This document shows positions 23,076 through 32,572 of a DNA stretch of 64,000 nt, piece by piece. A program made the translations under genes and the position numbers. The notes beneath the pieces were generated by a model that was not told the DNA's origin, did not search any database, and saw only the letters and a list, made by a program, of their open reading frames with translations. Positions within the stretch are counted from its first letter, which is position 1, and each line of letters opens with the position of its first letter. The DNA comes from Octopus vulgaris (Eukaryota): NCBI GenBank assembly GCA_951406725.2, contig OX597823.1, positions 101,370,001-101,434,000 on the forward strand, written 5' to 3'.

Positions 23076-25173
23076 ATAACATAAGGGACTAAAGCCATCT
23101 GAATATGGCTAGGGACAGGGCAGGGTGGTGGGGGTGTTACTGTTGCATTTAGCCCCAGGCGAACATCGACGTCACCAGAAAGGCTCGACACCGTCACGGT
23201 GCCCTTAACCTGCAAAGGAGGTAATTCCCCGATGAAGCGGAAACCACACACGGACCATGGTTTCAAGGTGTATTGCCTATCGTCGGCGTGTGGTAGGCTT
23301 CCGCTTCCTCGACGAATTCTCACTCTGCAGGATATTCATATATAGATTTTCAAGCAAAATACATTTGCTGATTTCGAAAATCTGTTCGAAAGCAATAATA
23401 ATTCTCTAAAAGAGATATAGACAGTAACTGCTCGATAACATAAGGGACTAAAGCCATCTGAATATGGCTAGGGACAGGGCAGGGTGGTGGGGGTGTTACT
23501 GTTGCATTTAGCCCCAGGCGAACATCGACGTCACCAGAAAGGCTCGACACCGTCACGGTGCCCTTAACCTGCAAAGGGAGGTAATTCCCCGATGAAGCGG
23601 AAACCACCACACGGACCATGGTTTCAAGGTGTATTGCCTATCGTCGGCGTGTGGTAGGCTTCCGCTTCCTCGACGAATTCTCACTCTGCAGGATATTCAT
23701 ATATAGATTTTCAAGCAAAATACATTTGCTGATTTCGAACAGATTTTCGAAATCAGCAAATGTATTTTGCTTGAAAATCTATATATGAATATCCTGCAGA
23801 GTGAGAATTCGTCGAGGAAGCGGAAGCCTACCACACGCCGACGATAGGCAATACACCTTGAAACCATGGTCCGTGTGTGGTTTCCGCTTCATCGGGGAAT
23901 TACCTCCCTTTGCAGGTTAAGGGCACCGTGACGGTGTCGAGCCTTTCTGGTGACGTCGATGTTCGCCTGGGGCTAAATGCAACAGTAACACCCCCACCAC
24001 CCTGCCCTGTCCCTAGCCATATTCAGATGGCTTTAGTCCCTTATGTTATCGAGCAGTTACTGTCTATATCTCTTTTAGAGAATTATTATTGCTTTCGAAC
24101 AGATTTTCGAAATCAGCAAATGTATTTTGCTTGAAAATCTATATATGAATATCCTGCAGAGTGAGAATTCGTCGAGGAAGCGGAAGCCTACCACACGCCG
24201 ACGATAGGCAATACACCTTGAAACCATGGTCCGTGTGTGGTTTCCGCTTCATCGGGGAATTACCTCCCTTTGCAGGTTAAGGGCACCGTGACGGTGTCGA
24301 GCCTTTCTGGTGACGTCGATGTTCGCCTGGGGCTAAATGCAACAGTAACACCCCCACCACCCTGCCCTGTCCCTAGCCATATTCAGATGGCTTTAGTCCC
24401 TTATGTTATCGAGCAGTTACTGTCTATATCTCTTTTAGAGAATTATTATTGCTTTCGAACAGATTTTCGAAATCAGCAAATGTATTTTGCTTGAAAATCT
24501 ATATATGAATATCCTGCAGAGTGAGAATTCGTCGAGGAAGCGGAAGCCTACCACACGCCGACGATAGGCAATACACCTTGAAACCATGGTCCGTGTGTGG
24601 TTTCCGCTTCATCGGGGAATTACCTCCCTTTGCAGGTTAAGGGCACCGTGACGGTGTCGAGCCTTTCTGGTGACGTCGATGTTCGCCTGGGGCTAAATGC
24701 AACAGTAACACCCCCACCACCCTGCCCTGTCCCTAGCCATATTCAGATGGCTTTAGTCCCTTATGTTATCGAGCAGTTACTGTCTATATCTCTTTTAGAG
24801 AATTATTATTGCTTTCGAACAGATTTTCGAAATCAGCAAATGTATTTTGCTTGAAAATCTATATATGAATATCCTGCAGAGTGAGAATTCGTCGAGGAAG
24901 CGGAAGCCTACCACACGCCGACGATAGGCAATACACCTTGAAACCATGGTCCGTGTGTGGTTTCCGCTTCATCGGGGAATTACCTCCCTTTGCAGGTTAA
25001 GGGCACCGTGACGGTGTCGAGCCTTTCTGGTGACGTCGATGTTCGCCTGGGGCTAAATGCAACAGTAACACCCCCACCACCCTGCCCTGTCCCTAGCCAT
25101 ATTCAGATGGCTTTAGTCCCTTATGTTATCGAGCAGTTACTGTCTATATCTCTTTTAGAGAATTATTATTGCT
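23076..25173. repeat. 360-bp tandem array with inversion: ~1.8 minus copies (23076-23739) and 4 plus copies (23733-25172)
   Basis: Exact 360-bp period (TTTCGAAC at 23733, 24093, 24453, 24813). Palindrome centre CAGATT at 23740-23745. (TA)n on both flanks. Confidence 0.97.
24083..24392 (+). ncRNA. Putative structured RNA within the 360-bp monomer (representative copy)
   Basis: Several helices covary with the homolog at 32259-32572. G-U pairs favour the + strand. Confidence 0.65.
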
Positions 25174-26317
25174 ATATATATATATATATATATATATGGA
25201 CTTGTAGATTTCTGTATGTGTATATATATATGAATGTGTATGTGTGTAGATATGTATCTGTATGTACGTGTACGTATGTGTATGTACTTGCATGTATGTA
25301 TATATGCGTGTAGGTATATATATGTAGGTATGCTTTTATGTACATGTGTATGCATGCATGTGTGCATATATGTGTTTATAAGCGTATGGATGCGTATATA
25401 TGCGTATGTATGGTTATATGCACATATGTCTGTATATGGGCATATGCGTTTATATATGTGGGCAGATGTTTATGTGTGTTTATGTGAAAGTGGGTACATT
25501 TATGTATGTATGAATATGTGTACTTGTGTGTGTGTATGTATGTGTATACATGTATACATATATATGTACATATATATATATATATATATATATATATATA
25601 TATATATATATATATGTGTGTGCTTGTAGAGAGAGATATATACATAAGTATGAGTGGATGAGAAGGAAATGAGCGAGAGAACATGTGTGTTTGTGTATGT
25701 GTATGAGGGTGCGTGTGAGTGTGTGTGTGTGTGTGTGAGTGTTTGCGTTTGCAAGAGATAGAAAGGAAGAGGGAGAGGGGAGCGGTAAATGGATTTCATT
25801 TAGGCCTGCTTGCACCCTGGGGAGTTCTAAGAACTTTTAGGGTTCGTCAACTCCAGCGCCACTAAATGAGTGTCGGCGGGTAGGTAGGTCATATATTATA
25901 CCTTTTATGACTCTGAAGAGTCAAAATAAAAATAAAAATAAAATAAGGGAGGAAGATGAGGAGAAAAAAAATATGTATATGTATGTATATATGTGAGTGT
26001 GTGTGTGTATGTGTATGTGTATATATGTGTGTATGTGTATGTGTGTGTATATATGTATATGTATGTGTATGGGTATATATATATGTATATAATGTGTGTG
26101 TATATATGTGTGTGTATATATATATATATATATATATATGTGGGTGTGTATGGGTGTGTATATTTTTTATATATATATGTATATGTATGTGTAGACATAT
26201 GTGTGCGTGTGCTTGCGTATTGGCATGTATGTGTATATATATATTTGTGTGTATGTATATATGTGTGTGTGTATGTATATATATATATATATATATATAT
26301 ATATATATAAGCGATAG

Positions 26318-26638
26318 TCTTCTTATTTACCTAAAACTCTATTCTATTAATCTATTTATTCATTTATCTACTTTATCACTGATCCTTTTGACCACTCTCC
26401 TAAGAAAGACAGTTTGTGCCCTGCTTACCCAAAAAAGTCCCCCACCACCACCCCATTAAATCTGCCTAAATGTATAAATGCCAAAACTTATTTTGACAGC
26501 AAGCTTCCTGATGATTTCATTTAAATGAAACAGTTCTAGTCCTGTAGAAGCTCCTTCTATAAAATAAATTAATTTACTTTGCTATGTATTGAGTATCTTA
26601 TTTACTGTGGTTAACCCCGACTCAACCCGGGACCTACA
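26318..26638 (+). mobile_element. PLE pLTR related to the 650-5687 element
   Basis: Shares CTTATTTACCTAAAACTCTATTC, AAAAAGTCCCCCACCACCACCCC, the hammerhead, and the TGGTTAACCCCGA..ACCCGGGACCTACA tail. Confidence 0.85.
26502..26552 (+). ncRNA. Type I hammerhead ribozyme (pLTR)
   Basis: AGCTTC-CTGATGA-tttcatttaaat-GAAA-CAG ttctagtc CTG-TA-GAAGCT. Stem II is weak. Confidence 0.75.
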
Positions 26639-30370: not shown

Positions 30371-32258
30371 TCATACCTGAGAAAGCTAACGACACAGAAA
30401 GATGCACTTAGCCCTTCAGAAGAATGCAGATTACCTATTTCTGGCATTTAAAAGAGAATCTTTGTTCCTAAAGAATGTTACCAGTGGCAATAAAGGTATG
30501 TATGCACTATAGAAATGTTATCCAATACTCCATTGACATAGTAAGATTATCGATGGGTCCTTCTTATCACGAAATATGCGAAGTTACTTAAAAGATCAAT
30601 GAAAGCCAGTAAATGGGCCATAATAATACTTTAATGTAAAATTGAAATCCATCTTACTAATAAGTTGTCTATCTCTCAGCAGCAATCATGCATTCTTCTG
30701 TATCTCTGTTGTCGGTTTAATTGCTCTGCTTGTCGGTATTTGCTGTCTATACCACTTCCCGATATTATTTTCTAGTGTGATATAGGACACTTTACAGATA
30801 CTTATCAAGAAGGATTTATCGCTAGGTTTATCAAATCTGGAAATTATCTTTGTGAGGAATATTTCAGTCAAGCGAAATTCCGTTGTTGTCAGACAACATA
30901 GCAATATGTTCAGAGTAGCAGAGACGGTATTGTGTTGGATAACTACTTTCCAATACTCACTTCTGTTATTTAGACATTCTGAGTTCAAGTCCCGTCAAGC
31001 CTGATTTTACTTTTAATACCATCAGAATCGATAAAACAAGAAGAAAACATACCCTTGCGGCGATCCAATTACCCTCTATATAAATGTATAAACCCAGTGT
31101 CAAAGTAAGGACCCTGTTATTTTCGCAGTGTCTTTTATGAGGTCATTGCTTTGGATGTACATGAGGAATGTTTGAAGGATCTTTGGAATAGGAAGTTCGC
31201 TAGCGGTCCCCAGCCCCAAGTATATCCCTGTTGGGAGAACGTCTTGTTTGCCGTAGATTTTTAAGGAGTGGTTGGAGATCACGCGGTCGTTAGCCTCAAA
31301 TCGCCAGGTCTGGTCGGCGTTTGTGAGAGATGCAGCACTGAGGATGAATGAAGCCAGCTCAACCCACCCCGGGTGAATGCTGTCTCAAGACAAGAAGATT
31401 GCTTTGGATACATTTACCAGAAGTAGTTTCTCTTCAGTTGCATAGCTGTATCAGTATTATTCTTGAGAAAAGTATGTATGTCGCATAGTCTAATTGGCAA
31501 TCTTTTATAAACTTGCTTCGCTGTAAAAACAAGATCGATACTTTGTGAGACCAAACGAACAGCAGCATAGCAGAAACAGCAATAGTCCAAAGAAACTGAT
31601 TGATTATTTTTGAAACGAAAATTCTAACCAACAGAAAAAGGCTTCAGGAACTGAATCCAAATATGTATCGATGTGTCAAACGATGCCGCAAACATTTCGC
31701 AAGAGCCACTGACGTCATCCATCCTAATAACTAAATCGACCCAATTTTTCAGATCCTGGAAGAGTTCAGGATGCTTTTATCATCACGATCTGACACTTGA
31801 TCTTGTAATCATAAATATTAAATCATGGAATAATAGTAAGCGTTTTTCCTTCTTTTTCTGTTTCTTTCGTTTATTTTCGTTAAACGGTTGTTTATTGATT
31901 ATGAGAAAGAGAGAGGGGGAGGGAGAGAGGAAAAAGAAAGAGAGGAGAGAATGAGAAACGGGAGAGAGAGAAAGAGGGAGAGAGAAAACGAGAGGAGAGA
32001 ATGAGAAACGGGAGAGAGAAGGTTACAGGGGTAGAAGAGATAAGATAAACAGAAAATGTGTGAGAAACATATATAAACAAAGGCAGAGCGACTAACAGGG
32101 TATGAAATCAAATCTGAGATGGCGTATATGAGAATCAGAGCACGGGAGAAAATTATGGAGGCTAACTTAGAGAAGGGCAACGGAGACGTAGGAACACTAT
32201 TGTTACATACGGCACGTGTGGGGTATTTGGGAATTTTGAACTTGGCAGAGAGAACAAG

Positions 32259-32572
32259 AGAGATTTATTATTGCTTTCAGACAGTTTTTCGAAATCAGTG
32301 ACAGTGGTTACTGGGAAAAACATTAAATAGATATTCGCAAACAGGTCTCTCCTCATCGAAAACCGGTGATTACCGTACGTTGACAAGAGGCAAAAAACCT
32401 CAAAAATGCATTCCGTCCGTATCACTTAGGTTTACGAGAGGGTATGACCTCCCTTTGCAAATATCATAAGGGCACAAAGTGTGCCTAAATCCAGCTGGAG
32501 ACGATAATCTCCTGGGGCTAAAAGCTACAGTAACACCCACCCTTAGTGGTTAGCCATATTGAGATGGCTAGT
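32259..32572 (+). ncRNA. Diverged single homolog of the 360-bp structured monomer
   Basis: Shares TTATTATTGCTTTC, TTTTCGAAATCAG, ACCTCCCTTTGCA, TAAGGGCAC, CCTGGGGCTAAA.GC.ACAGTAACACCC and TAGCCATATT.AGATGGCT, in the same order. Confidence 0.75.

Follow-up and report, generated by a model that had tools for sequence, protein, structure and literature searches.

We have found that a 64,000-nucleotide stretch of the Octopus vulgaris genome (contig OX597823.1, positions 101,370,001 to 101,434,000; hereafter the window, G000:C10:101370001-101434000 in the searched assembly of 2.8 Gb and 227 contigs) carries members of what is very probably a family of retrozymes without long terminal repeats (non-LTR retrozymes), that is, non-coding retroelements of 350-360 nucleotides (nt) with a type I hammerhead ribozyme, mobilized by Penelope-like elements (PLEs). 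Judged from their sequences, a 360-bp tandem array and a diverged solo copy in the window belong to a single genome-wide family of tandem units with at least six subfamilies, and the catalytic module of that family, encoded on the + strand, is a type I hammerhead whose core occurs in natural variant forms. Self-cleavage, circular RNA, expression and the helper enzyme are features that we infer within this reading. The retrozyme class has already been described; its cephalopod member appears to be new.

The array contains four copies of the 360-bp unit, 100% alike, at 23733-25173, and no open reading frame (ORF) of 150 or more amino acids runs across it. The complete insertion extends from 23076 to 25173 and is bounded by (TA)n runs. 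It includes, at 23076-23755, an inverted arm of another 1.9 copies, which a first-pass annotation of the window left out, having begun the array at 23733. The same annotation regarded the copy at 32259-32582 as solitary, whereas it belongs to a large subfamily with its own tandem unit of ~355 nt. Alignment confirms that this copy and the array unit are homologous, and both are strongly folded: the z-scores against dinucleotide shuffles are -4.89 and -5.56 on the + strand (array unit and solo copy, respectively) and -3.50 and -4.43 on the - strand, bearing out the earlier proposal of a functional structured RNA that favors the + strand. The features of the array and the solo copy are as follows.

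23076..25173, both strands: subfamily A retrozyme insertion inside (TA)n, made up of an inverted arm (1.9 copies, - strand) and four + strand copies
23076..23755, - strand: inverted arm of the array; outer end at putative reverse transcriptase (RT) start site 1 (monomer position 335)
23730..25173, + strand: four tandem 360-bp units; outer end at putative RT start site 2 (after TTATTATTGC)
23832..23877, + strand: hammerhead of array copy 1, predicted cut after 23871
24192..24237, + strand: type I hammerhead with stem I 24192-24197/24232-24237, core CCGACGA 24198-24204 (U4C), stem II 24205-24219 (U-U at base), GAAAC 24220-24224, palindromic loop III and GUC, predicted cut after 24231
24552..24597, + strand: hammerhead of array copy 3, predicted cut after 24591
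24912..24957, + strand: hammerhead of array copy 4, predicted cut after 24951
23247..23292, - strand: hammerhead of the inverted arm
23608..23653, - strand: hammerhead of the inverted arm
24329..24349, + strand: conserved GGGGCTAAA motif and CAGTAAC (5' strand of the tail helix)
24410..24452 (also 24050-24092, 24770-24812 and 25130-25172), + strand: 43-nt 'tail' between the two insertion end points, containing GTTACTG (3' strand of the tail helix) and a TCTC/GAGA hairpin
32259..32582, + strand: lone 5'-truncated subfamily B copy ending at start site 1
32374..32419, + strand: decayed hammerhead of the solo copy, core TTGACAA (U3-A8), stem II retained

A first-look search with the array unit, which represents subfamily A, gave 771 candidates genome-wide, the best of them 99-100% alike, and the solo copy, representing subfamily B, gave 2,508, with best matches 92-96% alike. 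The GGGGCTAAA motif with CAGTAAC sits ~97-105 nt 3' of the cut site in all subfamilies examined; the corresponding pattern has 6,103 matches in the genome and 2 in a reversed control, and variants of the motif led to subfamilies C, D, E, F, G and H. The six subfamilies that were compared are 58-80% alike, with tandem units of about 350-360 nt (351-360 nt in A, B, C, D and G) and a GC content of 41-49%. The family is dispersed over many contigs at high copy number with no LTR organization, and its insertions end at internal start sites, not at LTR ends. Relatives outside the genome were sought in metagenome contigs, where there were none; three matches in viral contigs were discarded as chance, being limited to the searched motif and lacking both hammerhead and tail. 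Among the contigs searched for signs of expression, none from a run recorded as RNA contains the element. Runs X1 and X3, only tentatively labelled as RNA, yield contigs of 390 nt (360 + 30), a length that tandem DNA would explain as well as a circle would. A piece of subfamily E of ~70 nt, from GGGGCTAAA to the GCCAC hairpin, has been captured in another repeat and spread with it (loci L079, L089, L132-L134, L144 and L147-L149).

The hammerhead lies at the tip of a long rod. Every subfamily has there a 6-bp stem I, a 7-nt core and a stem II with a 5-7-nt loop, followed by GAAAC, a 2-4-nt loop, GUC and the return strand of stem I. The core is canonical (CUGACGA, CUGAUGA or CUGAAGA) in subfamilies C, E, G and H, and variant in A (CCGACGA, U4C), B (UUGACAA) and D (UUGAUAA or CUGAUAA). 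Both substitutions are described natural core variants: the U3-A8 pair (PMC4209133, PMC3088659) and U4C, the latter with considerably lower activity in vitro (PMC3088659). A hammerhead descriptor that admits core variants, written after the motif had been seen, picks out all six array copies, has no other match in the window and hits none of 20,000 monomer shuffles; each of the six is thus a non-coding tandem unit in the 150-450 bp range with a complete type I hammerhead. Genome-wide, the canonical-core pattern has 1,694 matches against 0 in the reversed control, and among 18 of these matches viewed in context the family's downstream motif is present by regular expression in 13 and, as judged by eye, in a variant form in the remaining 5. 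The solo copy, in which GAAAC has become AAAAA and GTC has become TTC, fails the descriptor, and its hammerhead is presumably dead. The first-pass annotation had reported no canonical hammerhead core and had suggested an unrecognized RNA family or new ribozyme class. Neither view survives, since every array copy has a type I hammerhead and the supposedly novel apical module is this hammerhead with core variants described in print; it was overlooked because the core is variant (U4C in A, U3-A8 in B) and the solo copy decayed. The GAC/GUC pairing of the first-pass annotation is an alternative fold that masks the core. Hammerhead-like words on the minus strand (CUGAUUU..GAAA) were also considered and rejected, as helix I fails to form and the descriptor gives 0 hits on that strand.

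Sequence variation within the family follows the hammerhead fold. GAAAC..GUC, which supplies the A15.1-U16.1 pair and the NUH cleavage triplet and which served to select rows, is found 95-106 nt before the anchor motif in 130 of the 230 anchored copies with enough upstream sequence, the remainder being truncated or decayed. Core residues are kept in most of these 130 copies (G5 in 120, A6 in 124, A9 in 125), with U4C in 44, mostly of subfamily A. Where G5, A6 and A9 are all present (118 copies), positions 3 and 8 are C-G in 73, U-A in 39 and mismatched in 6, making 112 Watson-Crick pairs. Across 20 hand-picked variants 88.8% of cells are paired and 12 of 15 pairs have changed on both sides; none of 500 shuffles reaches the observed pairing, and slid registers give 14-47%. 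All six pairs of the open-ended helix I show two-sided change (93% paired in the 20 rows), while in helix II the inner three pairs are kept and pair 10.1-11.1 is mismatched in 15 of the 20 rows. In 99 of 116 rows loop III and the bases flanking it form a perfect palindrome, of which seven versions occur; such palindromes mark metazoan type I hammerheads that are active as dimers (PMC4209133). Neither U1.7 nor the last loop-II A played a part in selection, yet each persists in 153 of 155 copies; a Hoogsteen contact between the two is described in PMC11875169. The covarying structure claimed by the first-pass annotation is therefore real, in that stems I and II, the 3-8 pair and the palindromic loop III covary across subfamilies. 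In constrained folding the double hammerhead is favored over two single ones by 7.9 (A), 19.1 (C) and 9.5 (G) kcal/mol. The U4C and U3-A8 subfamilies illustrate why strict CUGAUGA descriptors and Rfam undercount animal hammerheads.

The junctions of the insertions indicate how the family moves. For subfamily A, 62 loci were examined and 61 were usable. Their 105 outward-facing 3' ends fall at site 1 (49), at site 2 (51), which lies ~43 nt beyond it, or elsewhere (5). A 5' inversion is present in 44 of the 61 insertions and 57 lie at (TA)n. The two inverted insertions that lie elsewhere each show a target duplication of 13 bp. Subfamily B behaves similarly (28 of 30 loci used, two duplicates left out): its ends form two clusters ~47 nt apart, 11 insertions are inverted, and 8 of 22 non-TA loci have 10-13-bp target duplications. 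The family has neither poly(A) nor a simple-repeat tail of its own. The earlier suggestion of a retrozyme-like mobile RNA as carrier is borne out.

This pattern closely resembles that of PLEs, for which incomplete tandem copies, inversion of a 5'-truncated copy, a tail of 30-40 bp that may be present or absent and a bias to (TA)n are described (Craig et al. 2021, PMC8557442), the tail being the stretch between two internal RT start sites (Frangieh et al. 2024, PMC11167929). From the match in tail, inversion, tandem copies, (TA)n bias and paired start sites we therefore infer copying by a Penelope-type RT. The octopus family and the PLE pseudo-LTRs (pLTRs) of these two papers also share a type I hammerhead. 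They differ in that the family has no ORF, that its tail is 43-47 nt, and that its hammerhead has the canonical form with the tertiary contact and not the minimal PLE form.

The family also resembles metazoan non-LTR retrozymes. These were defined by Cervera & de la Pena (2020, PMC7229834), who reported circles in coral, mussel and axolotl and proposed PLE helpers; in published accounts, as here, they consist of non-coding units repeated in tandem, 150-450 bp long (350-390 in mussel, 330/350 in axolotl), each with one type I hammerhead, a short palindromic helix III and no LTR, primer-binding site or polypurine tract. Axolotl HHR_Amex2 shares with subfamily A a U-U at the base of helix II. In the octopus, by comparison with those accounts, core variants (U4C, U3-A8) are fixed in whole subfamilies, GC is partly above the quoted <45%, and a scaffold of ~300 nt is conserved in six or more subfamilies. 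Co-occurrence and pLTR similarity have been used to argue for a PLE origin of vertebrate retrozymes (Li, Clavereau & Pollet 2026, bioRxiv 10.64898/2026.07.22.740005), in a preprint whose text does not discuss a junction-level PLE signature of tail, inversion and target duplication. Our literature search found no paper linking octopus or cephalopods with retrozymes or hammerheads, and the main texts of PMC7229834 and of the 2026 preprint name neither, although their supplements may list one. The octopus family thus makes a clean test case for which enzyme spreads animal retrozymes and how: where the published inference of PLE helpers draws on co-occurrence and pLTR similarity, young copies here record start sites, inversions, duplications and haplotypes, and a young PLE family is present in the same genome. 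Tandem units with a dimer-dependent type I hammerhead are, by description, presumably also what makes up newt satellite 2 and the satellites of Schistosoma and cave crickets, and we take the subfamily B loop II, CAAAUA, to equal the Schistosoma loop. Those hammerhead satellites are named in PMC7229834 and PMC4209133.

Sequence variants are usually common to all units and both arms of one insertion, even in an insertion of up to 22 pieces (L255). Two arrays (L246 and L256) mix haplotypes that are found pure in other insertions, which suggests template switching. Array-wide haplotypes fit repeated copying of a monomer with occasional switching of template, and could also come from a homogeneous linear donor array. 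Among array-wide variants in subfamily A, A>G exceeds T>C by 13 to 3 (p 0.01), compared with 6 to 6 among private variants (Fisher p 0.11); the bias is absent from subfamily G, polarity is partly unknown, and several of the sites have a 5' G. This is at most a hint of A-to-I editing. Recurrent A>G changes on the ribozyme strand, on differing haplotype backgrounds, occur at monomer A positions 92, 93, 104 and 226 (window 24166, 24167, 24178 and 24300), which may be editing hot spots.

These data are consistent with the following cycle. Tandem genomic copies would be transcribed on the + strand, and two neighboring hammerheads would form a double hammerhead by pairing between their palindromic loops III, cut after GUC and release monomers, a step predicted from the motif and its covariation; in a single unit, folding suggests that GAC/GUC pairing can hold the core off. 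Monomers would probably be circularized. The RT-endonuclease of an autonomous PLE may then nick AT-rich or (TA)n DNA and start reverse transcription inside the RNA at either of two fixed sites ~43-47 nt apart, running through several unit lengths. Starts would often be made from both target strands, hence the inverted arm, as suggested by the end points, inversions, target duplications and array-wide haplotypes. The remaining conserved helices most likely form a scaffold that the RT recognizes and that places the two start sites.

Several observations weigh against this account. Self-cleavage by the hammerhead, the circle and the transcript are all predictions. Nine of the 20 covariation rows came from the canonical-core search and all 20 were required to have GAAAC and GTC, and the copies are related, so that counts are not independent events and kinship inflates covariation tests. 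The active fold lies above the minimum by 9.7 kcal/mol in subfamily A (5.5 in C and 3.5 in G), and in every A copy U4C is accompanied by U-U as the basal pair of stem II. Of nine predicted retrozyme dimers in the Xenopus study, just one cleaved (bioRxiv 10.64898/2026.07.22.740005). Rfam returns 0 matches for the whole window at the gathering threshold, and in E-value mode no hammerhead model, only weak, microsatellite or inverted-repeat miRNA matches. The lack of an Rfam match, a comparison that the first-pass annotation had looked to, is thus real, but did not signify a new class, a hammerhead being found by descriptor; it lowers the case for membership of an Rfam hammerhead family and not that for a hammerhead. 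Finally, neither the fetched loci nor the one PLE family examined, the young one, contains an autonomous element with a homologous terminal repeat, and the tail of that family is ~70 nt, not 43.

The absence of a PLE with a matching terminal repeat would also be expected if the same hammerhead retrozyme were mobilized by another non-LTR RT (RTE, CR1/L2 or Tx1-like) through twin priming. Long interspersed nuclear elements (LINEs) likewise produce 5' inversions and target duplications, and the window holds several LINE-like ORFs, with elements of the RTE, CR1/L2 and Tx1-like kinds among its contents. Nevertheless, two fixed internal end points bound an optional 43-47-nt tail of a type described as unique to PLEs (PMC11167929), and the copies are tandem with no poly(A) or simple-repeat tail of their own, which leads us to regard this alternative as improbable. 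Still harder to sustain is the proposal that the family is a satellite-like repeat descended from an old retrozyme, with a dispensable ribozyme in subfamily A and spread as linear multimers or by DNA duplication. It would accommodate the universal U4C and U-U of subfamily A and the homogeneity of the arrays, and mutating the hammerhead of an anole PLE did not affect its insertion in vitro (Frangieh et al. 2024, PMC11167929). However, the compensatory U3-A8 pair, the seven palindromes and the U1.7-A contact persist among subfamilies that share no more than 58-80% of their sequence. Unequal crossing-over is at odds with scattered insertions that have exact ends and inversions, and linear templates prone to truncation could hardly maintain arrays of 10-22 pieces.

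Outside the ribozyme lies a non-catalytic scaffold (GGGGCUAAA, CUCCC, the tail helix and three hairpins), the sole unassigned part of the unit. Of the helices put forward in the first-pass annotation, the long rod, the AGATTTTC/GAAAATCT arm and the GGCAC, GGTGA/GGAGA and 3' GCCAT hairpins are present, and recur with changed stems across subfamilies (rod, AGYGAC arm, and GGACAC, GGAGA and GCCAY hairpins). Its closing helix TTATTATTGC/GCnACAGTAA is not supported, with a mean pair probability of 0-0.16 in A, B, C and G and no such motif found in D, and its 'invariant' GAAATC is GACGCC, AATATC, TAGATC or GAGATC in other subfamilies. The competing tail helix CAGTAAC/GTTACTG has a pair probability of 0.99-1.0 in B, D and G, which drops to 0.01 in A and C owing to competition from a C-rich insert, and it covaries (CAGTAAC/GTTACTG in 94 of 147 copies, CAGTAGC/GCTACTG in 17). 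CUCCC and GGGGCUAAA are paired by RNAalifold (CCC with GGG) and unpaired in single-sequence folding; RNAalifold recovered only 30 pairs from a 19-row full-length alignment because the alignment slips around GGGGCTAAA. RNase MRP/P, 7SK, SRP and telomerase RNA were considered and set aside after the blank Rfam result and in view of the copy numbers.

That this scaffold (GGGGCUAAA, CUCCC and neighbors) harbors the new ribozyme class of the first-pass annotation is scarcely credible: its motifs are strongly conserved with no thermodynamic reason, RNAalifold pairs CCC with GGG and Rfam has no match, yet the hammerhead already accounts for self-processing, a rough descriptor of our own for HDV-like ribozymes (nested double pseudoknot P1, P3, L3) gives 0 hits in A, C and G dimers on either strand, and the insertion ends adjoin the scaffold as reverse-transcription starts. 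Recognition of the hammerhead thus removes a false lead. Within the retrozyme interpretation, we tentatively entertain the more specific idea, doubtful as it is, that GGGGCUAAA, the tail helix and the flanking hairpins might be a dedicated RNA platform that recruits the telomerase-related PLE RT and determines where on a circular template its two internal starts fall, much as telomerase RNA serves its own enzyme. Were this so, the octopus insertions would be the first junction-level demonstration that a PLE protein copies retrozyme circles in repeated rounds, switching from one circle to another (the L246 and L256 mosaics), while A-to-I editing by the host would supply the lineage with heritable variants.

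The young PLE family is a candidate helper. It has 31,349 first-look candidates, its best copies are 95-98% alike with open frames, and it combines RT and GIY-YIG features with its own hammerhead and with DKT and CxCX5C motifs, which are those given for the Hydra clade of PLEs (Craig et al. 2021, PMC8557442). Its copies end 3' at either of two points, set in (TA)n and separated by ~70 nt, which account for 17 and 11 of 31 ends; TTACTG, which precedes the distal end by 30 nt, is all the sequence that it shares with subfamily A. The candidate helper ORF was left unnamed by sequence searches of Pfam and PDB and is named by an Atlas search. Its copies in the window are the following.

4469-5548, - strand: 5'-truncated PLE with the C-terminal half of the RT, CxCX5C linker and GIY-YIG; Hydra-clade-like
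about 5480-5680, + strand: inverted terminal repeat of the PLE at 4469-5548
26390-26640 (+ strand) and about 698-805 (- strand): further terminal-repeat copies of the candidate helper

The element at 4469-5548 represents this very abundant young family, which has a long microsatellite-rich 3' region, and the terminal-repeat copies have their own hammerhead, with CUGAUGA at 26508 and a predicted cut after GUA. A second, older PLE family (L023:760-1480, - strand) has 2,935 candidates, ~90% alike, and a hammerhead with a long stem II. The PLE fragment beside subfamily B in L023 and L026 was rejected as a partner, being an older element interrupted by B within a duplicated segment. Broken LINE-like ORFs of three kinds, with endonuclease and RT motifs recognized by eye, lie at 8862-12211 (- strand), 13335-17041 (- strand) and 55138-58541 (+ strand). 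We take the sequence at about 32900-33290 (+ strand) to be a common short interspersed repeat, which also flanks many of the fetched loci.

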